Shown here: positions 22,181 to 48,029 of the stretch, one piece after another
How positions within the stretch are numbered: position 1 is the stretch's first letter
How the letters are laid out: each line of letters begins with the position of its first letter
Origin: Eledone cirrhosa
Lineage: Eukaryota
Direction: 5' to 3'
Length of the DNA: 64,000 nucleotides
Assembly: GCA_964016885.1 (NCBI GenBank)
Contig: OZ024740.1
Span: forward strand, 212,102,001 to 212,166,000
The notes under the pieces: generated by a model
Database searches by the model: none
What the model saw: the letters and a program-made list of their open reading frames with translations, nothing else
Told to the model about the DNA's origin: nothing
Position numbers and translations under genes: made by a program

Positions 22181-22182
<2 letters not shown>
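16279..22182 (+). mobile_element. Near full-length L1/Tx1-clade LINE
   Basis: 5' UTR, disrupted ORF1 (16566-18483) with CVVCGEGTHLRAFC knuckle, ORF2, and a 3' UTR ending AATAAAGAAAACATT(ATT)n. (ATT)n also lies 5' at 16255-16278. Confidence 0.95.
18518..21937 (+). pseudogene. Tx1 ORF2 (APE-RT-CCHC), single premature stop
   Basis: ORFs 18518-19117 and 19214-21937 are in the same frame; the only interruption is TAA at 19115-19117 (SRS*LDRV). Motifs GDWNG, TDH, QGCPLS, YADD and CPRCAQGDETVLHALVQC are present. Confidence 0.93.
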
Positions 22183-22217
<35 letters not shown>

Positions 22218-22516
22218 TCAGGTAAGAATCAAGCATAAAGATTTGTTAAAAAGCGAAAGACAATTTAGTGAAAATGGAACCTAAACTGACATTTGGAATT
22301 GATGACAACCTAAACCTAGAGGTAATTCTTTGTTGTATTTGCATTTGACAAACACAGACATCTGTACAGAGCCATTGAGAGAAATTTTGTAAGGTGGAAT
22401 AAGAGAGATTTTTGTAAAGTGGAATAAGAATGCTTTAGAGCCCTGGGAAGGTGGGGGTCTGCTCACATTCAAGGGTGTTCAGAGGTGTTATTTTTCATGG
22501 AAAGGAGGGTGTCATA

Positions 22517-22602
22517 TATTTCCAGACATTTCTTTGGTTCTCCAGGACCCAGACTAACGTATTTCCAGACATTTCTTTGACTCTCCAGGACCCAGACTAA
22601 CG
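22517..22602. repeat. Two-copy tandem duplication, ~43-bp unit
   Basis: TATTTCCAGACATTTCTTTG..TCTCCAGGACCCAGACTAACG occurs twice. Confidence 0.85.
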
Positions 22603-22959
22603 CACTGACTGAATTCCACTGTTACAGGTCTAACATCTTTGTGTATATTTTGGTTAGTTAATCCCATTCCATTTTAAAACATTCAGAACTTATCACAATA
22701 GCAGGAACAGGAACAGCAGAAAGAGTAGCTGTTGTTATTGTTGTTTCCCTCAAGGCATTGTGTAGACCTATAATCAAAATCATTCCAGCCTTGACCATCC
22801 TGTATTATTGGAGCCATCTAAGATTCCATTGTTTAACTATTTCTTTTACCATATTTCTAACAAAAGATACTGCTTATGATTTACAATTAATTTTGAAAAT
22901 AATCAAGAATTTTGAAGTATTTAGTAATATATCTAACTTGCTTATTATTAAGCCTGTGT

Positions 22960-23026
22960 ACCCCCAATGTCCCCATCTATTGTCTTGTCCGCTATATGTA
23001 GGCTCTTGTGGCCAATAAAGAAATTG
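22960..23026 (+). mobile_element. Extremely 5'-truncated Tx1-like 3' end with 15-bp TSD
   Basis: CTCTTGTGGCCAATAAAGAAA resembles the Tx1 termini. TTATTAAGCCTGTGT is duplicated at 22945-22959 and 23027-23041. Confidence 0.65.
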
Positions 23027-23107
23027 TTATTAAGCCTGTGTGATACAGATGGAGTGACAGAATTGTTTGAGTGTAGGAAAAAGTTTTTGCATTATTTAGT
23101 TATGACT

Positions 23108-23294
23108 AAGGGCGGTGGATTGGCAGTACCGGTAGAGGGTCGGACGCCATGCTTTGACGCATAGTTACGGCCCTTGCCATTCTGAGTTCAAATCCCACCC
23201 AGGTTAACTTTGCCTTTCATCCTTACGGGGTCGATAAAATAAAGTACCAGTAATGTACTGGGTAATTGCTGGTCTTGTGCCAAAAGTAGAAACA
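23108..23294 (+). mobile_element. Young tRNA-SINE inserted into an older copy of the family (~23050-23468)
   Basis: A box TGGCAGTACCGG and B box GAGTTCAAATCC. TSD ATTATTTAGTTATGACT at 23091-23107 and 23295-23311. Confidence 0.9.
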
Positions 23295-23489
23295 ATTATT
23301 TAGTTATGACTCTCTATATTCTGAGTTCAAATCCAGTGAAGGTCAACTTTGCTTTTCATCCTTTGGGATTCAATAAAATAAAATACCAGTTAAGTACTGA
23401 GTCGATATAATCAAATTTCCTCCTCCCCTAAATTTCTAACCTTGTACCATTGTTAGAAAGAATTATTAAGCTGGTATTTGGAACATAAC

Positions 23490-23830
23490 TCAACAGTGGA
23501 GACTTCTGGTGTCTTTGGCCCTAAGACCACCTACCTGCTCACACCATCAACCCATAGTTGGCTACCCGTAGCAGTGGAGACTTCTGGTATCCTTGACCCT
23601 AGGACCAACTCGCTACTCACCACCATCGGCACAGAGTTGGCTACCCATAGCAATGTAGTTTTCTGGTGTCGTTGGTCCTAGGACCAACTCCCTACTCACC
23701 AGCATTAGCACGTAGTTGGCTACCCACAGGTGGGAAGCTCACCAGCTGGAATGGCTGCTCTTCCAGTGCGTCTCCCTCACCATCCTCCTGGGAAATTCCT
23801 TCTCTATTTTGTCCACGGGGCTGCAGGGTG
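23490..23830 (+). mobile_element. CRE-like RLE LINE C-terminal fragment with internal tandem repeats
   Basis: VETSG(V/I)xxP motif repeated about three times, then LEWLLFQCVSLTILLGNSFSIL; homologous to 55345-55620. Confidence 0.6.
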
Positions 23831-24208
23831 GCCTGTGCATGGGCCTCCATTTGCTTATATTAGTGAGAGATGGGGAGAGCAAGAGAGATGGAGGCAGTGA
23901 CTATACCAGCATTGCTGAAGTATTTTGTAGATTTAAAGGTTAAGTAATTTTACACTAACAGTAACGACAGTAGTTCTTTAACTATCTCTATATGTGGAAT
24001 CAGATCAAAGCACTCAACAAAAGCTCATACATAAAATTATCATAGAAGGTTTTTAGATAAAAATAAACATTCATCTGAGATTTTTTAATATACACTGTGT
24101 TGTTATATATAATATACACTATGTTATATATAATATACACTGTGTTGTACATTACTAGTTATATATAATATATGTTATATATAGTTGTTATATATAATTA
24201 TTTTGAAG

Positions 24209-24280
24209 GTAGTTGATGTGACAAAAATCTGTGTATCCAGTGCTACTGACTCTCTTTTACTGAACAAGAATCGAATACGA
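24209..24280 (+). CDS. CCDC13: Host gene exon (CCDC13-like), phase 0-0: VVDVTKICVSSATDSLLLNKNRIR
   Basis: ttattttgaag acceptor and gtaagt donor; 72 nt open frame that joins the next exon in frame (NRIR|GLKDENGRL). Confidence 0.6.
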
Positions 24281-24312
24281 GTAAGTATTTGCATATATTA
24301 CTTTGTTACATA

Positions 24313-24729
24313 CTCTTGGGTCTCAATTAATCGTTCCCCTACCCTTATTCATTTTCAGATCCGCCCCCTACCCCGCCCCACTCTTTTATTCCACCCCATT
24401 CCAACCTACCCCTTATTATATTTTGCTAATCTATCTCCGGTGAAATTATATTTTAAGTGGTAGCATTCCTGTGACAATTAATTTTCTTTAGACATTAAAA
24501 AACATATGACATGACAAAGAGAAGTACATTACTAGAAATCTCATGTTATAATAAATAGGAAGGGTTGGGGTTTGAATATGTAAACTAAATGACTTATTCT
24601 GGTTTTTAAAAATATCAATGGAGAAAAATGACTGATTCCCCTCCACCTGTACACTTATTCCAACTCCCATGCTTATTCCACCCAACCACAACTTATTCCA
24701 AGCCACCCCTATTATTTGGGACCCGAGAG
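24313..24729. mobile_element. MITE with TA flanks; relatives at 41558-41930 and partially 32500-32740
   Basis: TIRs CTCTTGGGTCTCAATTAAT / ATTATTTGGGACCCGAGAG flanked by TA; shared internal TAGCATTCCTGTGACAATTAATTTTCTTTAGACATT. Confidence 0.75.
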
Positions 24730-25464
24730 TAGATAAAAAAAACTTTTGATATACAAAGGAGAAGAAACAGCATTGTAAGGGGTGAGAATTTGCTTCAACT
24801 AGAAATAGAAACTGTATTGTGGGCTAAATGCTGCTGCTGCCGCTGCTGCTGCTACCATTGCTGTTGTTGCTGCTGCTGCTTCTTTTCTTCTTCTTCGTCT
24901 TCTTCTTCTTCTTCTTCGTTTTCTTCTCATCATTTTAGTGATATCAGTTGTGCATTCTTGCAGTCGTTTCCAGGAGTTAATCAAATTTTGTAGGGTTGGT
25001 CCCTCACTGTATTTAGCACATTCCTCCTCCATTTGTTGGTCAATATCCTGATATTTTTGTTCATTGGAGGTAGCTCTTAATTTTAAGAGTTCTATTTCCA
25101 TATTCATTTTGTTGAGTGACATTTGTTCGCGTAGTTTCCTTTGTTGTTCAGGCTCATTAGTTATGGGTTTTATTTGGAATTTATGGGGTAAGATTAGTGG
25201 TGTGGAGTTGATCCAGTTTTCATAGATTCCAGCTTTGTTCATATTTTTCACCATATTCCAAAGAGTGAATTTTCTTGTTTTCAATTGTTTTTTTTTTTCA
25301 AAAGTGTCAGATTTTGTTTTTAATTAAGGTGTTCGCTCTAACATAGCTGTATATATCAATAGGATAGATTAAGCATGGCACAGTGTAAGATAAGACTGAC
25401 ATTTTTAATTTACAGGCACAATTATTTTTTTCCAGCTGAGTGGCTTTGAGTAACATGAAATAAT

Positions 25465-25653
25465 TGTTTCTACTTTTGGCACAAGGCCAGCTATTATTCC
25501 AGTGCATTACTGGTACTTTATTTTATCGACCCCGTAAGGATGAAAGGCAAAGTTAACCTCGGCGGGATTTGAACTCAGATCATAAAGGGAGGTAACTCTA
25601 TGCTTCAAAGCATGGCGTCCGACCCTTACCGATACTGCCAATCCACCGCCCTT
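25465..25653 (-). mobile_element. tRNA-SINE with 16-bp TSD
   Basis: AGTAACATGAAATAAT at 25449-25464 and 25654-25669; the paralogous site near 37385 is empty. Confidence 0.92.
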
Positions 25654-25695
25654 AGTAACATGAAATAATGTGTCTTGATTGTACCAGCTTAATGA

Positions 25696-28418
25696 AACTT
25701 AGTCACGTATTATACACCTCACAATATGTTCTATCAACTATAAACTTAGTCATGTATTACACACCTCACAATACTTTGTATCAACTATACTAATATAAAC
25801 AGTCATGTATTACACACCTCACAATACTTTGTATTAACTATACTAATATAAACAGTCATGTATTACACATCTCACAATACTTTGTATTAACTATACTAAT
25901 ATAAACAGTCATGTATTACACATCTCACAATACTTTGTATTAACTATACTAATATAAACTTAGTCATGTATTACACACCTCACAATACTTTGTATCAACT
26001 ATACTAATATAAACAGTCATGTATTACACACCTCACAATACTTTGTATTAACTATACTAATATAAACAGTCATGTATTACACACTTCACAATACTTTGTA
26101 TCAACTATACTAATATAAACAGTCATGTATTACACACCTCACAATACTTTGTATTAACTATACTAATATAAACAGTCATGTATTACACACCTCACAATAC
26201 TTTGTATCAACTATACTAATATAAACAGTCATGTATTACACATCTCACAATACTTTGTATTAACTATACTAATATAAACAGTCATGTATTACACATCTCA
26301 CAATACTTTGTATTAACTATACTAATATAAACAGTCATGTATTACACATCTCACAATACTTTGTATTAACTATACTAATATAAACAGTCATGTATTACAC
26401 ATCTCACAATACTTTGTATTAACTATACTAATATAAACAGTCATGTATTACACATCTCACAATACCTTGTATTAACTATACTAATATAAACAGTCATGTA
26501 TTACACATCTCACAATACTTTGTATTAACTATACTAATATAAACAGTCATGTATTACACACCTCACAATACTTTGTATCAACTATACTAATATAAACAGT
26601 CATGTATTACACACCTCACAATACTTTGTATTAACTATACTAATATAAACAGTCATGTATTACACACTTCACAATACTTTGTATCAACTATACTAATATA
26701 AACAGTCATGTATTACACACCTCACAATACTTTGTATTAACTATACTAATATAAACAGTCATGTATTACACATCTCACAATACTTTGTATTAACTATACT
26801 AATATAAACAGTCATGTATTACACACTTCACAATACTTTGTATCAACTATACTAATATAAACAGTCATGTATTACACACCTCACAATACTTTGTATCAAC
26901 TATACTAATATAAACAGTCATGTATTACACATCTCACAATACTTTGTATTAACTATACTAATATAAACAGTCATGTATTACACACTTCACAATACTTTGT
27001 ATTAACTATACTAATATAAACAGTCATGTATTACACACCTCACAATACTTTGTATCAACTATACTAATATAAACAGTCATGTATTACACATCTCACAATA
27101 CTTTGTATTAACTATACTAATATAAACAGTCATGTATTACACACTTCACAATACTTTGTATTAACTATACTAATATAAACAGTCATGTATTACACACTTC
27201 ACAATACCTTGTATCAACTATACTAATATAAACAGTCATGTATTACACACCTCACAATACTTTGTATCAACTATACTAATATAAACAGTCATGTATTACA
27301 CACTTCACAATACTTTGTATTAACTATACTAATATAAACAGTCATGTATTACACACTTCACAATACTTTGTATCAACTATACTAATATAAACAGTCATGT
27401 ATTACACACCTCACAATACTTTGTATCAACTATACTAATATAAACAGTCATGTATTACACATCTCACAATACTTTGTATTAACTATACTAATATAAACAG
27501 TCATGTATTACACACTTCACAATACTTTGTATTAACTATACTAATATAAACAGTCATGTATTACACATCTCACAATACTTTGTATTAACTATACTAATAT
27601 AAACAGTCATGTATTACACATTTCACAATACTTTGTATCAACTATACTAATATAAACAGTCATGTATTACACACCTCACAATACTTTGTATTAACTATAC
27701 TAATATAAACAGTCATGTATTACACACTTCACAATACTTTGTATCAACTATACTAATATAAACTTAGTCATGTATTACACACCTCACAATACTTTGTATT
27801 AACTATACTAATATAAACAGTCATGTATTACACATCTCACAATACTTTGTATCAACTATACTAATATAAACAGTCATGTATTACACGCCTCACAATATGT
27901 TCTATCAACTATACTAATATAAACTTAGTCATGTATTACACACCTCACAATACTTTGTATCAACTATACTAATATAAACAGTCATGTATTACACACCTCA
28001 CAATACTTTGTATTAACTATACTAATATAAACAGTCATGTATTACACACCTCACAATACGTTCTATCAACTATACTAATATAAACTTAGTCATGTATTAC
28101 ACACCTCACAATACTTTGTATTAACTATACTAATATAAACAGTCATGTATTACACACCTCACAATACTTTGTATCAACTATACTAATATAAACTTAGTCA
28201 CGTATTACACACCTCACAATACGTTCTATCAACTATACTAATATAAACTTAGTCATGTATTAAACACCTCACAATACTTCCTAACACACCTCACAATACT
28301 TTGTATTAACTATACTAATATAAACAGTCATGTATTACACACCTCACAATACTTTGTATCAACTATACTAATATAAACAGTCATGTATTACACACCTCAC
28401 AATACTTTCTATCAACTA
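25696..28418. repeat. 53-bp tandem minisatellite, ~51 units; ~4 more units at 29620-29838
   Basis: Unit AGTCATGTATTACACACCTCACAATACTTTGTATTAACTATACTAATATAAAC (starts at 25801 and 25854), with few variable positions. Confidence 0.97.
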
Positions 28419-29620
28419 TCATCATCATCATCATCAACATTTAATGTCCGTGTTCCACGCTTGCATGGGTTTGGACGGGGGTTTTCCCACTTGAGGCAAG
28501 AGTGATTGTCTTGCTCGCATAGGACTGTCTGGCAGGTTTTCTACAGCTGGATGCCCTTCCTAACACCAACCACATTTCCAGTGTGGGTCTGGGAGGTTTT
28601 TACCGTGTTGCCTACACGGCCACATTACAGCGTGGACTGTGTGTTTTTTTGTCGTGACACCTACACGATCTCATTTGTTTCGGCCTGGATGGTGTGGCAC
28701 CAACATAACTTTACATAGAAGGGGGCGGTGTGGATGGGGTGGGGGTGGTGGGACGGGGGTGTATTTTGTTAGAGATGCCTACTGACTGTAGTAGGTTTTA
28801 CTTTGTATTTAGGTAAGGCGGGTCTTCTCTATTACTGAGTACCGCCAAAGGTCTCGGTCCAGTGACATTGTCTTGGTGAGGTGTAAGTGTGTGAGGTCGG
28901 AGTTTATCAGCTCATCCCAGGTTTTTCTGGGTCTGCCTATTCCGTGGCTACCGTCTATCTTTATTGCCCTGCACTTTGTTATACAGCTATTGTCCTTCAT
29001 GCGCATCACGTGACCATACCAACGTAACCTTCTCTCGAGTAAACAACATCTGATCCCTCTTATTTCTAATTTTTTCCTTAGTTCGTTTATGCTTTGTCGT
29101 TCACGTATATTACTATTACACATCCAGCGGAGCATGCAAGCTTCGTTTCTCTCTAGTCTGCTTATATCCTCTGCACACAATGCCCAGGTCTCACTGCCAT
29201 GCAACATTGCTGTTCGTATGCAGGCATCGTACAACCTGCCTTTCATTTTTAGGGAGAACCCTTTAGCGGCTAATAGTGGTATAAGCTCTCTGAACTTTTT
29301 CCACCCAGTTCTGACTCTAGCTACTGTACTTTCAGAGCACCCTCCCCCACTGCTGATTTTGTCACCCAGGTAACGGAAGCTGTCCACTATTTCTATAGAA
29401 CCCTCTGCGCAGTTGAAAGAGCTAGTATTTTGTGGGCACTTGCTGTTACTTATTGCCCCAGAACACCGGCCACATGTAAAATCTATGTTCTTAGTTAGCT
29501 TACCTGTGATCCCACTAATTCTTTTATGCACCCAAACTTTGCATTTGGGACACAAAATGGAATTTCTACCTACGCCTTTCCTACACTCTGCGCATGGCCA
29601 CTTCCCAGAGGGGACCGCCA
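28419..29620 (-). mobile_element. 5'-truncated RTE-clade LINE inserted in the satellite
   Basis: ORF 28809-29621 has FRYLG, MLHGSETW, RLRWYGHV and GRPRKTW; (GAT)n tail at 28419-28435. Confidence 0.9.
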
Positions 29621-29904
29621 CTAATATAAACGTAGTTGTGTATTACACACCTCACAATACTTTGTATTAACTATACTAATATAAACAGTCATGTATTACA
29701 CACTTCACAATACTTTGTATCACCTATACTAATATAAACGTAGTCGTGTATTACACACCTCACAATACTTTGTATTAACTATACTAATATAAACGTAGTC
29801 GTGTATTACACACCTCACAATACTTTGTATCAACTATATCACTTTACTGTCAAATATATATTTCAGAGAAGCTTTATATGTTTACTCTGTCAGTAAAAAG
29901 AAAT

Positions 29905-31895
29905 CATCATGATCATCATCATTTTACGTCCACTTTTCCCTGCTTGCAAGGGTGCGATGGGAACTGATTCTGGCTTGATTTCTACAGCTGGATGCCCTTC
30001 CTAACACCAACCTCATTTACAGTGAGTGGTGGGTGCTTTTTTTCCATGGCGCCTACACATCCACTTTACAGTGTGGGCTGTGTGCTTTTTTGCCGTGGCT
30101 CCACCACGACCACTTTGCAGTGGGAGAGTGTGGGGGCATATTGCCTATATGCTTCAGCTTCGGCTTGTACCCGTGGGGGGTTGGGTCTTCTGTATTACTG
30201 TGTGACGCCAGAGGTCACGGTCGTGTGTCATCGCCTTTGAGAGGTGTAATTGGGTAAGGTCGGCTTTTATCACCTCATCCCAGGTCTTCTTGCATCTCCC
30301 CACTCCGCGGTTTCCATCGACTTCTAGTGCTCTGCACCTTTTTATGCAGCTGTCATCTTTCATACGCATCACATGTCCATACCAACGCAACCGCCTCTCC
30401 TGCACACAGCATTTGATTCCTCTTATGCTCAGTCTCTCTCTTAATTCATTTATGCTTTGCCATTCGGGTATATTACTATTACACATCCATCGGAGCATGC
30501 AGGCTTAATTTCTTTCTAATCTACACAAGTCTTCCACAGTCAGTGCCCAGGTCTCACTACCATGTAACATTGCTGTTCATATACATGCATCATACAGTCT
30601 GCCTTTCATTTTGAGGGAAAACCCTTTTGCAGCTAGCAGTGGCAGTAGATCCCTGAACTTCTTCCATCCCGTTCTTACCCTAGTTATTGTACTTTCTGAA
30701 CACCCACATCCGCTGCTAATTCGGTCACCTAGGTAGCAGAAGCTGTCTACTGTTTCTACAGAGCCCTCCCAGAGATTGGTGGTACTTGTTTCCTGTGGCT
30801 GTTTGCTGCTTGCTGTCCCAGCACAGCTGCTACATGTGAAGCCTATATTTTTAATTAAACTTCCTGAGATCCCACTATATCTCTTGTGTACCCATTGTTT
30901 GCATTTGGAGCAGAGAATCGAGTTCCTACCTACACCTTTCCTACATACTGATCAAGGCCATTTCCCTGAGGGGATCTGGGTTCTGTTTTCTCGTCTACTT
31001 ACAAGGACCTTAGTCTTTGTCAGGTTGACTTTGAGACCCTTTCTTTCTAGTCCCTGCTTCAAAGTTTGGAATTTCTTCTCTAGTTCTACCCTAGATTCAG
31101 CTATAAGTGCGAGGTCATCAGCATACAGGAGTTCCCATGGGCATCCGGTCTTAAACTCCTCCGTTATTGCCTGCAGGACTACGATGAACAGGAGAGGCCT
31201 AAGAACAGAGCCCTGGTGGACACCGACCTGTATGCTAAATTCCTCGCTATACTCATTGCTAATCCTAACTTTGCTGACTGCTCTCCTATACATGGTTTGT
31301 ACAGCTTTCACAAGCCATTCATCTTCTCCTAGTTTTCTAAGAGCCCACCAGATTATAGCACGGGGAACTCTGTCAAAGGCTTTCTCGAGATCGATGAATG
31401 CCAGGTAGAGTGGCTTACTTTTAGCTAGGTACTTTTCCTGTAACTGCCTCACAAGGAAGAGGGCATCAGTGGTGCCTCTTCCTGGCACAAACCCAAATTG
31501 CATCTCATCTAGTTTCACCCGGTCCCTAATCAACTGTGCTATAACTCTTTCTGTTACTTTCATGACCTGGTCCATCAGCTTTATACCTCTATGCTTCCTC
31601 TATCTAGTGCATCACCTTTACCTTTGTAGCAGTTGACAATGATGCTACTGCATCAATCCTTTGGTATGAGTTCTTCTAGTATTACCTGGTTAACAATACG
31701 TGTGGTTATAGTGTGACCTACTGATCCAGATGCCTTCAGCATCTCGGCAGCTATATCCGATGGACAGGTTGCCTTCCCCGTCTTCATATCTTTGATTGCC
31801 TTACTTACTACGCTGTTGCTGACTTGTACTGCCAGCCCCTCTATAGGGTCTACTTGGAGTAGGGTCTCTTCTTCCCATGCATTCTCCTCATTTAG
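29905..31895 (-). mobile_element. RTE-clade LINE, degenerate RT
   Basis: QFGFVPGRGTTDA, FIDLEKAFDRV, GVHQGSVL, LYADD; (GAT)n tail near 29905. Confidence 0.92.
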
Positions 31896-32067
31896 TAATA
31901 TATATATATATATATACACTTAATCCTCCTCCCATCCCCAAACTGTACCAGAACCTCGGCTCTGATAATAAAATATTTTATGAACTATTCCCAGGCTTTC
32001 CTGATTGGCTGAGTATTGATTATGTAAGATAATCTGTGAATACATATATTTATTTCTTTGTTCTTAG

Positions 32068-32173
32068 GGTTTGAAAGATGAAAATGGGAGACTCAGTCAG
32101 CTATTAGGGGAGAAAGAATTTGAAATACGACAGCTTCAGAAAGAACTTTTGACACAAAATGATACAGTAAGAT
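32068..32173 (+). CDS. CCDC13: Host gene exon (CCDC13-like), phase 0-1: GLKDENGRLSQLLGEKEFEIRQLQKELLTQNDTVR
   Basis: tttctttgttcttag acceptor and gtaagt donor at 32174. DENGRL..LL.EK.FEI resembles CCDC13 as I recall it (DENGRLYKLLKERDFEIK); not database-verified. Confidence 0.82.
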
Positions 32174-32744
32174 GTAAGTTTTATAACATTATTCTTTTAC
32201 TAAAAACAAAGAAAATTATTTAACTGAATTAAAATTTAGCTTCAGCATAGCTGTATATATATATATGAATATACATTTCATATATCTAAAAGTATATGGT
32301 ATGTTTGATAAATAAACATTTTGAAAGCCCAGCTATGAATATTGAAAGGCACATGGTCAGCGTCGTCTAGCTAGCAGATTCCAGCAGAAGCAAGGGCGGG
32401 GGGGGACAACTTTTTATGCACATTTCAAGCTTATAGCTCTCATCGGGACAGTGTCTCCCCTGCTCTCTTCTGCAACTTGAAAACAAGCAAAAGGTTGTAG
32501 CATCCCTGTGACAATTAATTTTCTTTAGACATTAAAAAACATATATGACAAAAAAATAACATTACAAAAAATCCCATATGTTGTAAAATAAATAGGATGG
32601 GTTAGGATTTCAATATGTAAACCAAACGACTAATTCTGGTTTAAAAAACAACAATCAAGAGAGACAACCTAGAAAAAATATAAATTTTTAAACACCCCCT
32701 CCCACTTTTTCCAAATCCCCTCTTATTTGGGACCGTAGAGGACA

Positions 32745-32885
32745 TCCTAACCCTGCTTCTCGTAAGAAGTGACTAAAATGGTTAATGTCAAGTAGGGCAT
32801 CTGATTGTAAAACATTACCTCAAAAAGCCCCATCCAACCCATGCTAGCGTAGAAAAGTGAATGTAAAAATGATGATGATGATTAT
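32745..32885 (+). mobile_element. RTE-type 3' tail fragment; others at 33277-33500 (-), 33750-33800 (+), 35505-35680 (+)
   Basis: GGGCATC...CCCATGCTAGCGTAGAAAA..AAAATGATGATGATG, shared with the RTE 3' UTRs in this window. Confidence 0.7.
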
Positions 32886-33515
32886 TGATGTATTATTGAA
32901 GTAAATAGAAAGTAATAAAAGAATGTGATGTGACACTGAGAATATGATAACGTGACAACGTGCTGTAAAGTTTGGCTTTGTGTGGACTCTAAAAATTGTT
33001 TCAGCTTTATTTATTTATTAGTTTGAGGAAAGACAGTATTTTATAAGCTTTTGTATATACAAACATAATGTTTATTTCTGTGTGTATATATATATATATA
33101 TATATACACTGTTGGTTAAAAATCCATAGGAATAGTTTCAAACAATTTACCCCCTTCTACAACAGTTTCTAGAACATTCTGTAGCAGTGTAGCATTGAAG
33201 CATAAAACAACAAAAAAGAAATGTTAATCCATAAGTAACTTATTTATTAACCTAGTAGGTTGTCAAGGAATATGTTATCATCATCATTGTTTAACATCCA
33301 TTTTCCACACTAGCATGGGTTAGACGTGTTTGTCCCATTAGAGGCAAGTTGGGTGACCATGTCTCGCTCATATAGAACTGTTTTTGGCTGGTTTTCTATG
33401 GCTGGATGCCCTTCCTAATGCCAACCACATTCACAGTGTGTGCTGGGTGCTTTTTGTTGTGACACCTATATGACAACATTACTGTGTGGGCTGGATGTTT
33501 TGTGGTACCAATATA

Positions 33516-33563
<48 letters not shown>

Positions 33564-33869
33564 TGATGATGATGTGTAAACTGGTTTCTGAAATATACTT
33601 GAGCTACCAGAAAAATGGGTTTGTAAGTAGTGTGAACAAATAAAGAAGGGGCTCAGTCACTGATGAAATCTCATCACACCTAAGTCCCCTTTTTTTCTGT
33701 CCACAGTGATATTGTATATACAGATTTGTCTAATCCCAGAAATGCAACAGCCCGTCTTAACCATACAAGCATAGAAAATAGATGTAAAATGATGATGAAA
33801 TAACGTGTTTACATTTGTCTATATGTACAATGCTGCGTAAAAATATGGATATATTTTAATAATAAATAA

Positions 33870-35282
33870 AAAAAATAAATAATAATAATGAGATTATTGT
33901 GTACAGTGCTCAGGTGCACTACAACTCATCAAAGGTACATGTATAGTACATAGAATAATTGTTTCTACATTTGGCACAAGGCCAGCAATTACCCAGTGCA
34001 TTACTGGTACTTTATTTTATCGGCCCCATAAGGATGAAAGGCAAAGTTAACCTCGGCGGGATTTGAACTCAGATCATAAAGGGACGTAACTCTATGCTTC
34101 AAAGCATGGTGTCCGACTCTCTACCGATACTGCCAATCCACCGCCCTATATAATTGTTTCTACTTTTGGCACAAGGCCAGCAATTACCCAGTGCATTACT
34201 GGTACTTTATTTTATCGACCCCCGTAAGGATGAAAGGCAAAGTCAACCTCGGCGGGATTTGAACTCAGATCGTTAAGGGACGTAACTATGCTGGAAAGCA
34301 TGGCGTCCGACCCCCTACCGATACTGCCAATCCACCGCCTCAAGTACATAGAATAATGTTCAAATGTCAGGAAAATGAATAGTGTATCAGTCATGATATA
34401 TATATGTGTGTATGTGTGTGGAGGGGGAATATTAGGTGTAGTGTTGGTGAATTTCAGGAAGCATGGAGGTTTTAAAGGATGCAGTGTCTCGACAGCTAAC
34501 AACTGATGCAGATAGTTTGTTCCATGCTTCAGCAACTCTGAGCGTGAAAAAATGTTTCCGAAAGTCATGGGTGCTGTGTTGTTTTCTGACTTTGTAGGTA
34601 TGCCCACGTGTGTTAGACATATGGAATTCAAAAAGGTGCTCAGGGTTGTTGTTGGCAAGATGGTTAATCATTTTGTGGGTGTTTACAAAGTTAGTTGCCA
34701 GACGTCAAAGTTTCAGTGTATCCATGCCCAGGGAAGCAAGGCATTCAGTGTATGGTAGATGCCTGGTGGAGGGTATTCGCTTGGTTGCAGGTCTCTGAAC
34801 AGTTTCCAGGAGGTTAATGTTCTGAGCAAGATAAGGGTTCCAGACTGGAGATGCAAATTCTAAGTGTGGCCACACCATAGCTATATACAGCTTTAAACAG
34901 ATAGCTAGAGGGCAGCTGACAAAGGTCTTGCTGAGTGATGCTAAGACACCCTCGACCTTCTTGACAATTTTAGAGACGTGTTTCGTCCAAAGCAAATCGC
35001 TGCTGACCGTAATGCCCAGATCATGTTCACAAGAAGACTTCTTGATATTAGTGTTGTGAAGGGAGTATGTGGATGCTGGGTTTTTACTCCCAAAATGCAT
35101 GGTGGTACACTTGTCCACAGCCAGCTTGAGTTGCCAGTCTGTGATCCATTGTTGCATTGTGTCCAGGTCTGATTGCAAGAAAGATCTATAGTGTTCAGGA
35201 TCTGTCTTTTTTATCTCAAGGTTCAGCTTGATGTCATCTGCATATTTCAGCACTGTGGCATTCTTTAAGTTGGCATCTATTT
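33870..35282 (-). mobile_element. CR1/L2-group LINE 3' fragment
   Basis: KYADDIKL, LQSDLD..QQW..DWQLKL..DKC, HLEFASPVWNP, TRGH, FFTLRV.EAWNKL. Confidence 0.88.
33960..34342 (-). mobile_element. Tandem SINE dimer enclosed by one TSD
   Basis: Two full SINEs (33960-34147, 34154-34342). AGTACATAGAATAAT at 33945-33959 and 34343-34357. Confidence 0.9.
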
Positions 35283-35757
35283 TGTAGTACAGTAAAACAT
35301 TGAAGAAAAACACTGTCAATGCCTCAGTAATTTATTAATTTAACTAGATGCCAAAAGTGCGCAAAGTCACAAGAAATAGTGAGTTTATAAACAGTATGTT
35401 TGTGGACATTTAAAGAGGGTACTCAATCATTGATAAAACTCCAACAGTAGAATTGAAACTATTCTATCTAATCCATATGTTTTCTTTCAATGAATATTTA
35501 TATATAGTCCACGCTGTAAAGTGGTTGGTGTTAGGAAGGGCATCCAGCCATAGAAATCAAGCTAGAAACAGTTCTGTGTGAGCAAGACTCAGTCAGCTGA
35601 TCTGACATCTCACAAAAGGACAACTCATCTAATCCCATGCTAGCGTAGAAAATAGACGGTAAATGATGATGATGATGATGTAAGTACTGGCCTATCTAAC
35701 GTCATGCAATAATAGAAAATAGATATTAAAAAGCGAGACAAATATCACATCTGTTTG

Positions 35758-35838
35758 TATAAATACTACTAGATAAACATATAAATACTACTAGATAAAC
35801 ATATAAATACTACTAGATAAACATATAAATACATAAAC
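35758..35838. repeat. 22-bp tandem repeat, ~3.5 copies
   Basis: TATAAATACTACTAGATAAACA repeated. Confidence 0.85.
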
Positions 35839-35999
35839 ATAGCACAGTATAATATTGACTTTAACCTCCTTAATTAAACAACAGTGTGTGGGGTTGTTAT
35901 CAGGGATCAATATCTATCATGTTGATACAAGATGTCTTTCTGTATTTAATATTGTCTTTACTTATTTAATCCTTGATTAATCTTATTTAATCCTTGCAT

Positions 36000-36125
36000 G
36001 GAGGCAAATGGCTTAGTGGTTAGAGCATTGGCCTTGCAATCGAAAGGTTGTGAGTTCAATTTTCAGACCGGGTGATGTGTTGTGTCCTTGAGCAAGACAC
36101 TTTATTTCACATTGCTCCATTTTAG
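36000..36125 (+). mobile_element. tRNA-headed CORE-like SINE 5' part; older relative at ~37315-37395
   Basis: A box TGGCTTAGTGG and B box GAGTTCAATT, then GTGTCCTTGAGCAAGACACTT (CORE-like). Confidence 0.7.
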
Positions 36126-36451
36126 TTAGCTATAGAAATGAGAGGATAGGACTGGGGTCCCTATCATTCCACTGCAAAGTGGTCGTGGAGGTACCACGGC
36201 AAAAAAGCACACAGCCCACGCTGTAAAGTGGACGTGTAGGCGCCACGGAAAAAAAGCACCCAATACTCACTGTAAATGAGGTTGGTGTTAGGAAGGGCAT
36301 CCAGCTGTAGAAATCAAGCCAGAATCTGTTCCCATCGCACCCTTGCAAGCAGGGAAAAGTGGACGTAAAATGATGAGGATCATGATGATTTCTTTTTACT
36401 GACAGAGTAAACATATAAAGCTTCTCTGAAATATATATTTGACAGTAAAGT

Positions 36452-36825
36452 GATATAGTTGATACAAAGTGTTGTGAGGTGTGTAATACACGACTACGTT
36501 TATATTAGTATAGTTAATACAAAGTATTGTGAGGTGTGTAATACATGACTAAGTTTATATTAGTATAGTTAATACAAAGTATTGTGAGGTGTGTTAGGAA
36601 GTATTTTGAGGTGTTTAATACATGACTAAGTTTATATTAGTATAGTTAATACAAAGTATTGTGAGGTGTGTAATACATGACTAAGTTTATATTAGTATAG
36701 TTAATACAAAGTATTGTGAGGTGTGTTAGGAAGTATTGTGAGGTGTTTAATACATGACTAAGTTTATATTAGTATAGTTGATAGAACGTATTGTGAGGTG
36801 TGTAATACGTGACTAAGTTTCATTA
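36452..36825. repeat. Short inverted copy of the 53/55-bp minisatellite (~7 units)
   Basis: Reverse complement of the units at 25696-28418. Confidence 0.92.
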
Positions 36826-37084
36826 AGCTGGTACAATATGGTAGAAATATATAAAAGGCAAAGAATGGCAAACAAAACAAAGTAATGTTTTTATCCAGTA
36901 TAAATGTAAAAATGAAGACGGTTCAAAACAAAACCAATGATCAATGTGTTCTGCTCTGTTTTTTCATTTGAAAAGAGGGTATTAGCCCTATTATTATGTT
37001 GATTTAATTAGCCCTAAAATATTATGTTGACTGAAACTTATCAGTCATTTATTACATATTTATGAGAGAATATTTTTCTTGCAG

Positions 37085-37224
37085 TACCAGAAATTACAAA
37101 TGATGCTGCAGCTATGAAAATTGTGGAACTTTCTAAAAACCTGCGTAAAGCAGTGTCATATCTTGAAGTTGAGAAAACAAAATCCAGAAATTTAACAAAA
37201 CTGTATGAAGAATTGAAAGAAGAG
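37085..37224 (+). CDS. CCDC13: Host gene exon (CCDC13-like), phase 1-0: (L)PEITNDAAAMKIVELSKNLRKAVSYLEVEKTKSRNLTKLYEELKEE
   Basis: tttttcttgcag acceptor and GAG|gtaact donor; phase matches the previous exon. DAAAMKIVELSK resembles CCDC13 DVVATKIVELSK (recalled). Confidence 0.85.
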
Positions 37225-37559
37225 GTAACTATTATCATGGCAACTACTAGTATACTATTAGTATATCAATGAGTTATTAGTAACAAAGTATATATATGAT
37301 GATGATGATGATTTTGTAGTTAGGGTGTTTTACTCAATTGTAAGGGCATCTGTTTGGTTCCCTGTGGCCTTGAACAAGACACATTATTTCATGTTACTCA
37401 AAGCCACTCAGCTGGAAAAAAATAATTGTGCCTGTAAATTAAAAATGTCAGTCTTATCTTACACTGTGCCATGCTTAATCTATCCTATTGATATATACAA
37501 CTATGTTAGAGTGAACACCTTAATTAAAAACAAAATCTGACACTTTTGAAAAAAAAAAA

Positions 37560-38930
37560 CAATTGAAAACAAGAAAATTCACTCTTTGGAATATGGTGAA
37601 AAATATGAACAAAGCTGGAATCTATGAAAACTGGATCAACTCCACACCACTAATCTTACCCCATAAATTCCAAATAAAACCCATAACTAATGAGCCTGAA
37701 CAACAAAGGAAACTACGCGAACAAATGTCACTCAACAAAATGAATATGGAAATAGAACTCTTAAAATTAAGAGCTACCTCCAATGAACAAAAATATCAGG
37801 ATATTGACCAACAAATGGAGGAGGAATGTGCTAAATACAGTGAGGGACCAACCCTACAAAATGTGATTAAATCCTGGAAACGACTGCAGAATTGATATCA
37901 CGAAAACGATGTGAAAAATCTGAAAACTGTTTCCTTAAATATGAAGAGGATTTCAAAAATACACATCACCCAGAAAACCTCTTTATAAAGAAATTAAACA
38001 AAACAAGAACCCCCACAGAAACATTCATACTGCCAACCCTAACACACATAAACCACAGACAAAACCTCACTCAACACAAACAAATACAACCAGCTACAGT
38101 AGAAGAAACATACCCAACCATCACAACATAAGTACCCACAAAAATATCTCCTACAGAAACCAACCCCAAAACAAGATAGAACTAACCCACAACATAAACA
38201 GCATATACTTCAGAAGAAATCCACCTGGACCACATGAAATCCCAACAAACTTTTCCCCACATTAACAACTGCAACAGGTATCACCCCTAACACTACAAAA
38301 AACAACCTTTTATCAACACTATGTATTCTAGATGAATCCACCAAGACCACACAAAACCACCACTGAACCCTTACACAACAACGACAACAATGGGTACCAT
38401 TCCCAACACTGTTAACCCTCGAAAGAAAACATCCTACAGATCCATACAAAACAGACTATAATTACACCCAAAATAACATTCCTTTTTTAGAACAAAGACT
38501 GAAATACCAGGACACCCGATGGCTCCTATACATGAAAAACTGAAGGTAATTAACCTTTCAAAGAAATCACTAACTAACACAAAAATTAACATATTAAGTA
38601 AGAGACTGAAATTTACACCCACACCACAAAAATCAAACTTTCCTGAAATGAAAGATGACATCATGGAATTTTGACAAAAACTCAGACTAACCGAATACTT
38701 CTCCAATGACACCAACACTGAAGACGAATCAATAGTGAGAAACAAAAGTGATTTCTGCCCACACAAATGAAGGAACTCAGCACTGGACACCTACTGCAAA
38801 CACATGATCAACTTTCCCTATGAGAAAATTGAAAATAAACACACAAAATCGAACCTCTCAAAACATGAACGGAAAGAATTATTCACACTGAGATAACACA
38901 GAAATAACCATCAAAGAAGGCGATAAAATA
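37560..38930 (+). mobile_element. Degenerate Penelope-like element, N-terminal ORF region
   Basis: INLSKKSLT..ILSKRLKFTPTP..KLRLTEYF and a terminal IKEGDK resemble the PLE pre-RT region (NLS...KGL.F.PTP...IK.ADK). Many stops. Confidence 0.65.
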
Positions 38931-39074
38931 TTTTATATATTTTATAAAAAAATTGTTCTCCTTTTTTCAATAATGTAACTTTGACAGATTAAAGAAGAAA
39001 AAAAGAAAAAAAGATTCTTTAAATATATTTATATGCTGTTTCCATTCTTACTTTTTTCTACACACACATATATA

Positions 39075-39433
39075 CAGTTGCCCCCCCCCCCCAGTATTCG
39101 CGGGGTTTATGTTCCTAGAGCACTCGCGAAGAGTGAAAAACTGCGAATATTGGACATAGTCCATAAAAATGTCTATAAATGTCAAAATATAATTAAAAGG
39201 GGGGTGGGGAGCGTCTTATGTGGAGGGGCGTCCAATAGGCCAGCAAATATGGTATATTGTTATTAATAATTTAGCATTAAAAAATATATATTGCCACGAA
39301 AAAAGCCATTAAAATATCGCGGAAGATATTTACGATTCTGCGAATATGCGGTGGATTGCCATGAACAATTATTAGTTAGGTTCTAATGACAATTCTGTAA
39401 ATAACTGGGACTGCGAATGTTGGGGGTACACTG
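39075..39433. mobile_element. Tc1/mariner-type (Tigger-like) MITE
   Basis: CAGTTGCCCCC..AGTATTCGCG / CTGCGAATGTTGGGGGTACACTG termini with TA flanks. Confidence 0.7.
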
Positions 39434-39704
39434 TATATATATATATATATTTAGTTATACCATATACGTGGTTTTGTCTTTGCGTGTAATTGTTTTCACT
39501 GAACCAAATAATGACGTATTATCTTCGTTTTTTTCCTTTCTTTGTAAGGGAACGTTTCCACAAACCAAAGTATCGTCTTCCTGTCTTCCTTTGGTTGCAA
39601 CGTTTTTTGAAATATTTACTTCTGCGTTCACAGATTGACTTTTTTAGTTTCAGAAGATCTCGTTAAGGGTGAAAGCAGCGATTCTTTGCTTAAACTTTAA
39701 TCTG

Positions 39705-39747
<43 letters not shown>

Positions 39748-39935
39748 ATGATTTAGTGTTAAAAAATAAAAATTAATGGTAAAATAAAATTACATCTTTT
39801 AAAATGTCCTCCACCCCACATCTGAGGGTGTGTGACCCTAAGCTATAGTTTATTTAGCTTATAGGTATGTCCAGTACTGTATATATAGTGTAAAAAACAC
39901 TCCCTGAGGTATTTTCCCTCAGCAATATTGTTTAA

Positions 39936-40131
39936 CCCTTTAGCATTTACATTACTCTATATATACTATTATATTTTCATGGTAAAGGCTTTATCTCACA
40001 TAATATCGAATCTATGAGATTTTGGTGTTCTTTATGTTGAGAACAATACCTTAACATCAGTATGAGTGGCCAGTTATGGCCGATTAGAACAGAAAGAGGT
40101 GAGAGAATTCTGGCTGGATAATGCTAAAGGG
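39936..40131. mobile_element. piggyBac-like MITE; second copy at 40917-41124
   Basis: TTAA-CCCTTTAGCATT ... AATGCTAAAGGG-TTGA; copy 2 ends AAAGGG-TTAA. Confidence 0.7.
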
Positions 40132-40223
40132 TTGAATTTATTTTCTTCTTGAATTTATTTTCTTAAATCTGAATTTTGTTGTTGAAATGTCTCATATTGT
40201 CAAAAAAATCTTGTTTTTCCCAG

Positions 40224-40262
40224 GGAAAGGATATTGTCCAAGAACCAAGAAATAAAACTTCT
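40224..40262 (+). CDS. CCDC13: 39-nt host gene micro-exon, phase 0-0: GKDIVQEPRNKTS
   Basis: cttgtttttcccag acceptor and gtgagt donor; open frame compatible with the preceding exon. Assigned by context only. Confidence 0.6.
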
Positions 40263-40500
40263 GTGAGTATTATTTGAAACTAGTAAAAACATATTGTTGT
40301 ACCACCAGTAAAATACACACACATACACACTCACATACATCACTCACACACACACCTACACACACACTCACTTTTTAAATGATTGATTTGTTCGCAACCA
40401 TGGAAAACACACTTTGTTGACTTCAGAAAACTTTTCCCACAGAAAGATATTGAAATATGTCAATTTGTTATTATGATGTCACCATATTTTTGGTTTAAAC

Positions 40501-40821
40501 CAGTGGTGTACAACATATTCCATTGGCAGGCCACTTTTGAACATTGGAACAACTATTAGGGCCATAAATATTTATCAAACACTATTCCAAAGATTCACCA
40601 CAACTTCTTTCCATAACATTGAACTGCGAAATTATAACACACATGACCCCATCAGTGAAGCCCTTTAGTATAGGGCAACTAACAGAAAATTGTATTACGG
40701 TTACAACAAAAATTCTAAATAAGCCTACAAGGTAAAAATTATAAAAAAAGTTATCACGGGCCACTCTGACTGGTCTGGTGGGCCGGATTGTGGCCCATGG
40801 GCCGCCTGTTGCACGCCCCTG
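40501..40821. mobile_element. hAT (Charlie-like) MITE
   Basis: TIRs CAGTGGTGTACAAC / GTTGCACGCCCCTG; 8-bp TSD GTTTAAAC at 40493-40500 and 40822-40829. Confidence 0.88.
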
Positions 40822-42179
40822 GTTTAAACTATCTTTCATACTTTCTTTCTCTCTCTCACTGTATTTCTCCTCAACAACAACAACAATCTGTCACTATAGT
40901 GAGAATTATTTTTTAACTCTTTGATATTTACATTACTCTATATTTACTATTGTATTTTTGTGATAAAGGCTTTATGTCACTTAATTAGCTCACATAATAT
41001 CGAATTTACAAGATTTTGATATTATTTATTTAGAACAATACCTTAACGTTGGTTATGAACGACTGGTTTGAACAGAAGCAGTTAGAGAATTCTGGCAGGA
41101 TCCAGCAGTTAAAATGTTAAAGGGTTAAAGTCTGTTATCATTTTAATTTTGCTATCATAAACAATCCACCTCTCTTCCACACACACTCTCTCTCTCACTC
41201 TGTTTCTCTCACAACAACGACTTTTCACTCCTCCACTTTTTCCCTTCTTCTACATATCAGTTTGTGAAAGACAGACAGATGAAGAAACAGCTCTCCTTTT
41301 ATAATATAGATCAGCAGTCTGAGAAACATGAACTGATTAACAATTTAATTTTTTTACTATTGTTAGATATGATATATCACTGATACTATAATATATATGT
41401 TTAGATATATGATATACACTGTGCATATACATAAGATATAGTGAGTGTAAAAAAGGATTATATAATATGGCAGCGGTATTTAATTTTAAAATGTGTATTG
41501 GGGGAGCTAGAGAGGATGCTGAGTTGTATGTAGGAGTCATGTGAAAATGTTTTGTTACTCTCAGGTTTCAGATAATGCCCCCCCCCCTCCTCCTTATTAA
41601 TGTTTCAGACCCCCCAATCCCGCCCACTTATTAAATTTTAGTCAATCTGTCACTGGTGAAATTTTATTTAAGTGGTAGCATTCCTGTGTCAATTAATTTT
41701 CTTTAGACATTAAAAACATGCAGTTGACAAAAAAGTACATTACTAAAATCCCATAAGTTATAAAATAAATAGGATGGGTTGGAGTTTCAATATATAAACT
41801 AAACGACTAATCTGGTTTTTCAAAAATATCATGGGACACAACAGAAAAATTACCGATTTTCCACCCACACACGTTAATTCGACTGTAACCCCCCACCACC
41901 ACACGCACACTAATATTTGGGACCCAAGAGTAGCTAGGAAACTGAGAAGGTAGATCATATTCAAAACAGTAGCTAGAGTGAATGAAGTTGAGGCAACTGA
42001 GTGGAATGTTGATGAGAGGAGTGTTGCTGGAAATGAAGAGAATAGTGTATACTTCATGTGTGAGATGTGAGCATGATTTGTGAGAGCAATGCATAGATGA
42101 CTGGAGGATAGGAGAGATAAAAAGAATGTGGAAGAGAGTAGAGGATGAGGAAGACCAAGAAGAACATTTCTAATAATAA

Positions 42180-43416
42180 AAAACACACAGTCCACGCTGT
42201 AATGTGGCCGTGTAGGTAACACGGTGAAAAGCTCCCAGTCCACACTGTAAATGTGGTTGTTGTTAGGAAGGGCATCCAGCCGTAGAAAACCTGCCAGATA
42301 GTCCTATATGAGCGAGACACGGTCACCCGACCAACCTTGCCTCAAGCGGGACAACTCCCGTCTAACCCATGCTAGCGTGGAAAATGGACGTTAAACGAAG
42401 ATGATGATGATGTTGGTGATGATTGGAGTAAGAAATGCAGTTTGGGTTTGTGCCAAGTAAAAGTACCACAGATGTTCTTCTTGTACGACAACTAGCTAAA
42501 AGTAAACCCATCTACTTAGCTTTTGTAGACCTGGAGAAAGCCTTTGACAGAGTCCCCTGCTCCATTATCTGGTGGGCTCAGCAATGTTACATGCAGTGAG
42601 ACATGGGTATTGTGTGCAGAGGATCTGCGCAGACTGGAAAGGAACGAAGTGTGCATGCTCCATTGGATGTGCAATAGTAATATACGCGAACCGCAAAACA
42701 TAAATGAACTAAGTGAGAAATTAGGAATAAGAGGGATCAAATGCTGTTTACTTAAGAGAAGACTATGTTAGTATGGTCACGTGATGCGCATGAAAGACGA
42801 CAGCTGTATAAAAAAGTACAGGGCGATCAAAATTGATGGAAGTTACGGAGTAGGTAGACCCAGATAAACCTGGGACGATCTAATAAATTCCGACCTTACA
42901 CACTTGCACCTGTCTAAGACAATGTCACTGGACCGAAATCTTTGGCGCCACGCAGTAATACAGAAGACACGCCTTGCTATGTACCAAGCAAAACCTAGTC
43001 AGTAGGCACCTCTTAACCAAATATACACCCCAACCCACTACCTCTACTCTATCCTCTTACTCCCACTAACATCACCCTCTCTCTGTAAAGTTGGTACCAC
43101 AACATCCAGTCCAAATTAATGAGATAATGAGTTTGAGATTGTGTAGGTGTCACGACAAAAAAACACAGTCCACGCTGTAATGTGGTCGTGTAGGTAACAC
43201 GCTAAAAAGTTGCCAGTTCCACACTGTAAATGTGGTTGGTGTTAGGAAGGGCATCCAGCCGTAGAAAACCTGCCAGATAGTCCTATATGAGCGAGACACG
43301 GTCACCCGACCAACCTTGCCTCAAGCGGGACAACTCCCGTCTAACCCATGCTAGCGTGGAAAATGGACGTTAAACGAAGATGATGATGATGTTGGTGATG
43401 ATTGGAGTAAGAAATG
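42180..43416 (+). mobile_element. Internally deleted RTE between two near-identical RTE 3' tails
   Basis: 42180-42436 matches 43157-43416. The interior reads MQFGFVP, DLEKAFDRV, then jumps to SETW. Confidence 0.85.
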
Positions 43417-43927: not shown

Positions 43928-43937
43928 AAGAATGAGA

Positions 43938-47917: not shown

Positions 47918-48029
47918 ATTTGCTCTACGGTTCTTATATATTTGATATATATTTATTCTTATCGAGCCCTCTTTGGATTTTAGTCTTCAAATTTAATATT
48001 ATTACTATGTATGTATATATATATATATA

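Follow-up and report, generated by a model that had tools for sequence, protein, structure and literature searches.

A young inverted copy of the two flanks of an exon, lacking the exon itself, in an upstream intron of a CCDC13-like gene of Eledone cirrhosa

In a stretch of 64,000 nucleotides of the Eledone cirrhosa genome (assembly GCA_964016885.1, contig OZ024740.1, positions 212,102,001 to 212,166,000; hereafter the window), the sequences flanking a coding exon occur a second time, in reverse orientation, in an intron upstream. How did such a copy arise without the exon, and can the pairing that it permits remove the exon from the transcript? The original prediction proposed that the pre-mRNA loops the exon out, with exon skipping, back-splicing and ADAR editing as consequences. 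Here, U denotes the inverted copy (24939-30123, in the intron before exon A) and D denotes the flanks of exon B (36169-36837 and 37375-37900); the features are collected in Table 1. We consider it fairly probable that a template switch between opposed repeats, during replication or repair, gave rise to U as a real young copy, and that U is a near-neutral passenger and not a splicing switch.

Table 1. Coordinates of the features of the locus, as positions in the window
Feature	Position	Strand	Details
First coding stretch found, CCDC13-like gene (exon start not fixed)	22274..22321	+	tblastn with O. vulgaris CAI9720696.1; GT donor
Exon 2	24209..24280	+	72 nt, phase 0-0; tblastn and splice-site check
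U, reversed counterpart of 37900-37383 (right arm of D)	24939..25464	-	4 substitutions and 2 insertions (7, 1 bp) in 526 columns
SINE-type repeat inserted in U after the duplication, 8 bp from the junction	25465..25669		205 bp; 16-bp target duplication 25449-25464 / 25654-25669
U junction	25670..25694	-	8 bp (37382-37375) abutting 17 bp (36837-36821), at 25677/25678
53-bp minisatellite, expanded in U	25695..28419		47.7 + 2.6 copies; TRF
LINE 3' part inserted in U array	28420..29619	-	1.2 kb; 277-codon open frame
Remaining U minisatellite	29620..29838		4 copies; TRF
U, inverted copy of 36453-36169	29839..30123	-	10 substitutions/285, E 1e-132; 2 in inner 189 bp, 8 in outer 96 bp
Decayed LINE into which U continues	30124..31890	-	3 stops/266 aligned codons, one frame change; probable resident template-switch partner
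Exon A	32068..32173	+	106 nt, phase 0-1; inside 6-kb loop separating U/D arms
High-copy SINE in D	36000..36390	+	Pol III A-box-like head (A box at 36009), LINE-like 3' tail
D left arm	36169..36837	+	SINE tail, 63 bp unique, 367-bp minisatellite, 17 bp unique
Absent from U	36838..37374	+	537 bp = 247 bp intron + exon B + 150 bp intron
Exon B	37085..37224	+	140 nt, phase 1-0; O. vulgaris CCDC13-like identity 80%
D right arm	37375..37900	+	SINE remnant followed by multi-copy sequence that precedes decayed retroelement frame (38528-38881)
Exon C	40224..40262	+	39 nt, phase 0-0

The host is an octopod CCDC13-like gene with five intact plus-strand exons, collinear in order with the O. vulgaris and O. 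sinensis proteins and, for three of the five, with that of O. bimaculoides; the organism guess behind the original prediction is thereby borne out. The short exons 2 and C give weak protein matches (E 0.1-2), and A and B are present in all three proteins of the named Octopus cluster; the coordinates first given for A and B were correct. Since exons 2, A, B and C all retain their GT/AG ends, frame and plus orientation, no inverted segment lies between the arms. CCDC13 is a ciliary gene, and in a Drosophila study Ccdc13 was reportedly required for the central microtubules. A word-index search with exon B as query found no match, Pfam returned nothing above the cut-off for the exons or for protein P0001, and Rfam, over 22000-42000, gave a single match on an AT run that was judged to be due to chance.

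Self-BLAST and alignment of the window yielded four matches between U and D, with E values down to 0.0, and bear out the claim that both flanks of exon B are reversed in the upstream intron. The right arm alone scores 904 bits (E 0.0 in self-BLAST), far beyond chance, and ragged similarity extends it to 24921/37918. Positions 25654-25677 of U are the reverse complement of 37398-37375 (24/24), and 25678-25738 match 36837-36769 with two substitutions and an 8-bp gap. The two flanks are joined directly at 25677/25678 (GTGTCTTG abutting ATTGTACC), as had been read; the joint is blunt, with zero shared bases and no microhomology, and the end of U at 24921-24984 is ragged. The segment with exon B is absent from the copy, again as first described. 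The inner parts of U are about 99% identical to D. Among the inverted pairs found from 22322 onward, U/D has the highest identity (97% and 96%; no other pair exceeds 91%). A gene segment has been copied in reverse orientation inside its own gene: U is a genuine and young reversed duplicate of both flanks of exon B. The copied flanks amount to 1.2 kb, but the original prediction overlooked that U is interrupted and 5.2 kb long: with a SINE, a minisatellite and the 1.2-kb LINE inside it, U spans 5185 bp, and both arms are mostly repeat DNA.

Could U be an artefact of repeat assembly? The arms are rich in repeats, U holds a 2.7-kb array, and the read pieces compared cover the D side; this explanation is nonetheless highly improbable, given that U has private substitutions and a private SINE bounded by a target duplication. 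A contig from public run X1 (possibly the same sample as the window itself) matches 37032-37412 without a difference, runs through exon B and across 37374/37375, and ends at the last 31-mer not common to U. In X4, a second sample, one contig begins at 37513, the first shared 31-mer beyond the U/D difference at 37512, and a second breaks off by clipping at 37862, where the final 31-mer common to both copies precedes their difference at 37863; over the 175 and 154 bp that they cover in the right arm, these two X4 contigs show no differences. Three contig ends, two of them from the second sample, all on the D side and chosen from the 24 pieces listed of 339,813, sit exactly at U/D differences, which makes misassembly unlikely. 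The summed read depth of the minisatellite in X1 (1900 at 36666, against about 22 in single-copy pieces) supports an array of tens of units. Counts of A>G/T>C were 69/74 in X4, resembling the 82/106 of X1, and all 15 read joints listed (beside 7401 further ones) lie within repeats. The private substitutions and insertions of U, and the contigs ending at U/D differences, indicate indirectly that U is present in the genome and not merely in the assembly.

The contents of U give an order of events: the copy came first, and a SINE, a LINE and 2.6 kb of minisatellite were added to U afterwards, with no such gains in D. Relatives of the SINE at 23090, 33948 and 34150 are 89-94% alike, and the minisatellite has about 54 units in U versus about 7 (367 bp) in D. 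The LINE inserted in the array, which we take to be an RTE element, has relatives that are single proteins with endonuclease, RT and PHD. Its 277 codons contain no stop, as against the three in the resident LINE into which U continues, and the latter is thus probably older than the duplication. Downstream of D, the decayed retroelement frame at 38528-38881 is presumably Penelope-like, and a search of Atlas with the 123-codon frame in the right arm gave no usable match. The SINE tail at 36169-36390 makes up the outer end of the left arm that was duplicated. Thousands of reads show the join of SINE head and tail; in X6 (RAD reads) a G is inserted behind 36148 in 8507 of 12494 and 6718 reads join 36156-36171 to 36221, and in X1 70 loose ends at 36149 read as family variants, patterns which mark the join as a family trait. 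By its head and its LINE-shared tail, the only parts compared, 36000-36390 resembles the LINE-tailed SINEs, including Ceph-SINEs, as they are described in PMC5786205. The segment 36143-36168, considered as repair filler, belongs to this high-copy SINE.

The outer junction bears on the origin of U. At 30123/36169, D runs on as the high-copy SINE head and U as the decayed LINE, with a 3' tail common to both, so that the junction lies in two opposed homologous repeats. Such a joining of the D SINE tail to the 3' end of a resident LINE points to template switching between opposed repeats. A strand end in the LINE 3' end would have invaded the opposed SINE tail some 6 kb away, crossed over within the shared tail, inward of about 30028, and copied D backwards before rejoining near 24921-24939; the 537 bp with exon B would have been lost by chance, through the blunt jump or a later deletion. 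Differences between U and D cluster in the outer tail, with a change point at 30028 that was reached in 13 of 300 permutations, and affect 4 of 667 inner against 8 of 98 outer positions (Fisher p 2e-5, for a split picked after looking). Three of the eight are CpG transitions and two are adjacent pairs, so mutation after copying can explain part of this excess, and the subfamily of the resident LINE has no other member in the window against which the crossover could be checked. A gap of about 53 bp in the tail is common to U and D and absent in five of the six other aligned copies of the window (the sixth aligns poorly there), which makes U and D mutually closest across the whole tail and counts against the proposed switch.

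That copying ran from D to U is suggested by parsimony alone, with three junctions versus four. The fourth would be required by two reciprocal events, in which the left arm was born at U beside the LINE and passed to D, and the right arm went the opposite way, from D to U. This would suit the running of the left arm of U into the longer, older LINE, and no exon deletion would be necessary, but the arms would have to meet at 25677/25678 by chance, and we regard it as very unlikely. Inspection by eye showed no target duplication at the SINE of D. An inversion with staggered breaks was rejected, as exon A keeps its plus orientation and frame and U is the reverse of the left and right flanks in D's own order; so was a spliced RNA intermediate, 36838-37374 being bounded by AT..AA on the plus strand and TT..AT on the minus strand, not by GT-AG.

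Two published cases bear on the template switch. In MANBA, a 13.1-kb intragenic inverted duplication of exons 8-11 is reported to cause disease, with exons 8-9 or 8-10 skipped in cDNA, and template switching between opposed Alus was proposed (Blomqvist 2019, PMC6549551). The present locus shares with it an inverted copy in its own gene and one junction within opposed SINE copies that is taken as a template switch; it differs in being 1.2 kb, exonless, based on a SINE tail and a LINE instead of two Alus, aged by insertions and known from DNA alone, and the pre-mRNA hairpin proposed in MANBA corresponds here to a folding prediction. In CHM, the inverted duplication of exon 12 is reported as 1752 bp long, exon-containing and downstream with a 274-nt loop; it has microhomology at both junctions, its hairpin pairs with the exon itself, and skipping was seen (Fadaie 2021, PMC8756506). 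Similar size, an inverted exon region in an intron of its own gene and a proposed replication-error origin are common to both loci, whereas here the exon is absent, the 6-kb loop encloses a different exon, and the inner joint is blunt. A partial literature search found no publication on the locus or on an exon-omitting inverted duplication.

Was the exon omitted by chance? A random 537-bp gap in the 1732-bp donor holds the entire exon in 398 of 1196 positions, about a third, in keeping with loss by chance. The copy might instead once have held exon B, pairing with and blocking the real exon, until a favoured deletion rescued splicing and later insertions weakened the pairing. The gap does take the exon with both splice regions (247 and 150 bp), every later size change falls in U, and exon-containing inverted copies are described as pathogenic in CHM and MANBA (PMC8756506, PMC6549551); yet 350 of the 1196 possible placements of a random gap would also take in the exon with its splice signals, an exon-containing allele was not seen, and a single locus cannot demonstrate selection. 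We find this history doubtful.

The loop-out proposal stood in part. Pairing between U and D is possible: cofolding of 24939-26080 with 36430-37900 predicted 894 inter-arm pairs and left exon B out, and addition of the distal left arm brings the predicted total past 1 kb, in keeping with the duplex of over 1 kb with a bulge of about 540 nt that had been envisaged. Unlike the CHM and MANBA copies, U does not include exon B, and in the predicted fold it pairs with only 3 of its 140 nt. Complementary arms lie on either side of exon A, as claimed: the left arm flanks A and the right arm A and B together, B alone being flanked only via a shared partner in intron 2. The special role, by contrast, is disfavoured by spacing, frame and other pairs. 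The arms sit in different introns, separated by 6.0 and 11.9 kb, which, with the reported decay of editing in human Alus on a scale of about 800 bp and its weakening across gene segments (PMC4066801), counts against it. So does the frame shift on skipping B alone; skipping A alone also shifts the frame. Of 29 inverted-pair matches, 7, 17, 13 and 12 bracket exons 2, A, B and C (overlaps and the two U/D arms counted), and the bracketing of each of the four internal exons by other pairs argues in the same direction, as do U's two insertions and large array expansion since its origin. In Octopus vulgaris, circRNAs are reported to be low overall and splice sites rarely altered by editing (PMC9699675), which weighs further against such a role.

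A working switch, by which U/D pairing would bring marked skipping, mainly of A and B together, a 246-nt circle and ADAR editing in the arms, is thus unlikely in our view, for all that the outer arm is about 99% identical over 0.5 kb and brackets A and B, whose joint loss (246 nt, 82 codons) is in frame and whose circle has a frame without stops. Young repeats are reported as the main editing targets in animals (PMC9989829), and inverted Alu pairs as over-represented up to 5 kb from exons that can be skipped (PMC13019027). The resemblance to such pairs is that reverse-complementary intronic sequence brackets A and A+B; here the arms derive from the copying of a segment and exceed Alu pairs in length, identity and spacing, and exon B would be a one-strand bulge instead of a hairpin loop (PMC13019027, PMC4066801). 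Besides the spacing and the frame, the presence of A and B in all three named Octopus cluster proteins and the threefold disruption of U speak against a switch. Quite improbable is a further proposal, that a copy spared the exon and splice signals escapes CHM/MANBA-type harm while its 0.5-kb, 99% arm holds introns 2 and 4 together, giving a lineage-specific, in-frame CCDC13 lacking A and B and a stop-free 246-nt circle tuned by ADAR editing. By analogy with MANBA (13.1 kb) and CHM, whose long inverted duplications cause skipping, a real splicing effect may be conceivable, but U is probably near-neutral. Under the template-switch account, intron 2 would mostly be spliced out first, and some transcripts may pair U with D with low-level editing, A-B-C inclusion still being the main product.

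The locus offers an example of octopus intron growth, in which a local inverted copy was followed by SINE, LINE and minisatellite growth whose sequence can be dated. Can co-transcriptional splicing be outrun by a long inverted pair of near-perfect identity, 6-12 kb apart, in a high-editing animal? For this question, too, the locus provides a natural test. Were the skipping of A and B or their circle abundant, a single copying accident would have created a new isoform of a ciliary gene; were exon omission common genome-wide, selection would be seen to filter such duplications.

The original prediction described an inverted copy of the sequences flanking exon B of the CCDC13-like gene, and matches of both arms confirmed it: the source (D; left arm 36169-36837, right arm 37375-37900) recurs in reverse orientation in intron 2 (U, 24939-30123). 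Over 526 aligned columns the right arms are separated by 4 substitutions plus 2 insertions; in the distal left arms, 10 of 285 positions are substituted. The inner junction of U at 25677/25678 is blunt. U falls within the class of intragenic inverted duplications. A spliced-intron origin of the omitted 537 bp was rejected since GT-AG ends are absent on both strands, and an inversion was rejected because the orientation of exon A is unchanged.

Rather than a clean 1.2-kb copy, U is a 5185-bp stretch enlarged by an inserted 205-bp SINE, which lies 8 bp from the junction and has a 16-bp target duplication, by a 53-bp minisatellite array (about 54 units versus 367 bp in D) and by part of a LINE, 1.2 kb long, whose 277-codon frame is unbroken. 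The corresponding sites in D are empty and the insertions are thus later than the copying. We take the LINE to be an RTE element; the relatives found were single proteins combining endonuclease, RT and PHD. Of the exact matches found to the minisatellite of D (36445-36837), the longest (136 bp) sits in the U array at the end away from the junction (28190-28325). On the junction side none exceeds 72 bp, and the first unit has changed more. This far-end position may reflect the order of array expansion or later gene conversion.

Four of the eight listed public sequencing runs were compared with the window over 31950-40300, among them X1, possibly the source sample of the window, and X4, another sample of the same study. 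Three informative contig ends were picked from the 24 pieces shown. An X1 contig (37032-37412, 0 differences) ends at the last 31-mer absent from U, one X4 contig begins at 37513, the first shared 31-mer past a U/D difference, and a second is clipped at 37862, beyond which another such difference ends the run of shared 31-mers. Given these ends and the private changes carried by U, it is highly improbable that U is an artefact of misassembly. The summed X1 depth of 1900 at 36666, against about 22 in single-copy pieces, is compatible with an array of tens of units, to which copies elsewhere could contribute.

The coding pieces of the gene are collinear, form an open frame when spliced together and show 52-83% identity per exon to octopus CCDC13-like proteins.

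Coding pieces of the CCDC13-like gene
Feature	Position	Strand	Evidence
First coding piece	22274-22321	+	tblastn; GT donor
Exon 2	24209-24280	+	tblastn, weak match; AG/GT ends
Exon A	32068-32173	+	tblastn; 106 nt; AG/GT ends
Exon B	37085-37224	+	tblastn; 140 nt; AG/GT ends
Exon C	40224-40262	+	tblastn, weak match; AG/GT ends

The best of four matches to exon B was an Octopus vulgaris protein (80% identity, E 6.6e-10) in a cluster of three, named CCDC13 or CCDC13-like, from O. vulgaris, O. sinensis and O. bimaculoides. The per-exon identities would fit a source octopod distinct from those three species. No further CCDC13 exons were found 3' of 40262 within the window. At P0001 residues 1-52, the first coding exon has two matches in the O. 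vulgaris protein and two in that of O. sinensis, which suggests a tandem repeat of this exon in the gene models of those species; the window has one copy.

Chance is enough to explain the omission of exon B. A random 537-bp gap in the 1732-bp donor encloses the whole exon at 398 of 1196 positions, and the exon with its splice signals at 350 of 1196. Exon-containing inverted copies accompany skipping and disease in the human genes CHM and MANBA, so such copies could be harmful and only an exon-free one retained; however, a single locus cannot demonstrate this filter, which we regard as unlikely.

U and D diverge at 30123/36169. On the U side a decayed LINE follows, reaching about 31890 (RT domain; 3 stops in 266 codons), and on the D side a SINE head that bears what we take to be an A-box-like motif at 36009. 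The decayed retroelement frame downstream of the D right arm (38528-38881) is presumably Penelope-like, the match found being a weak RT relative. The head-tail join of the D SINE is a family trait that recurs in thousands of reads: of 12494 reads of the RAD run X6, 8507 vary at 36148, and 6718 join 36156-36171 to 36221. The two arms therefore terminate in repeats of opposed orientation, that of D in a SINE tail and that of U in the 3' end of a LINE. Within the distal left arm, the inner 189 bp have 2 differences and the outer 96 bp have 8, of which 3 are CpG transitions, a change point matched by 13 of 300 permutations. This clustering would fit a crossover within the shared tail. PMC6549551 proposes the same mechanism, with opposed Alus, for MANBA, and one U/D junction is compatible with such an opposed-repeat switch. 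A gap in the tail is common to U and D and absent from other copies in the window, and the direction of copying was assigned by parsimony. The outer end of U (24921-24984) is ragged and adjoins (CTT)n and (TGC)n runs; its 64 bp contain 6 substitutions and insertions of 7 bp and 1 bp, compared with 2 substitutions in the adjacent 480 bp. That the arms of U and D arose separately, in two events, is very unlikely. On balance, U is a real and young copy, likely to have originated by template switching and likely to be without function.

Other repeats in the window include a 260-bp direct repeat (42179-42437 and 43157-43416, 97%), a LINE 3' end flanking rearranged LINE pieces; palindromic elements at 8216-8792 (577 bp, 97% self-complementarity, MITE- or foldback-like), 43933-44375 and 47783-47919; a decayed mariner-type transposase at 53599-54750 (Mos1 HTH match); a LINE at 19118-21934 (939-codon open frame, RT and zf-RVT) with kin at 1-2423, 4670-6375 and 12700-14160; and degenerate (AT)n over about 6.4 kb at 57351-63727.

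It had also been proposed that the pre-mRNA forms a long duplex leaving exon B out. Cofolding of two pieces 10 kb apart, U's initial 1142 nt and 36430-37900, gave 894 inter-arm pairs with 3 of the 140 exon B bases paired to U; at equilibrium the two pieces by themselves could hence adopt this structure. Its formation in the pre-mRNA appears doubtful, as the arms lie in different introns with 6045- and 11918-nt loops between them, compared with a 274-nt hairpin loop in CHM. Pairing with the exon, which defines the CHM type, is nearly absent here. Inverted-repeat loop-out (PMC13019027) could apply to U/D, which matches it in geometry alone. For human Alus, PMC4066801 gives an editability that decays over roughly 800 bp and is reduced for pairs spanning gene segments, a trend that may not be transferable to longer, purer octopus arms. 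Nothing on this locus or on exon-omitting inverted copies was found in the papers searched.

U/D is the most identical of 29 inverted matches of at least 50 bp from 22322 onward, of which 7, 17, 13 and 12 (overlaps counted) bracket exons 2, A, B and C, respectively. The SINE family inserted in U also has two head-to-tail copies at 33948-34359 (93% alike), and with an opposed copy at 23090-23301 it brackets exon 2 and exons 2+A. In O. vulgaris, editing falls mainly within introns and 3' UTRs, circRNA levels are low and splice sites are rarely altered by editing (PMC9699675); low-level editing of the U/D arms would thus be ordinary.

It seems improbable that the duplex would work as a splicing switch. 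Loss of exon A or B singly shifts the frame, which is kept when both are lost (246 nt), and a circle of A+B would hold one stop-free frame. If the duplex does act on splicing, the in-frame result would be the loss of A and B together or the 246-nt circle, and not the loss of B alone.
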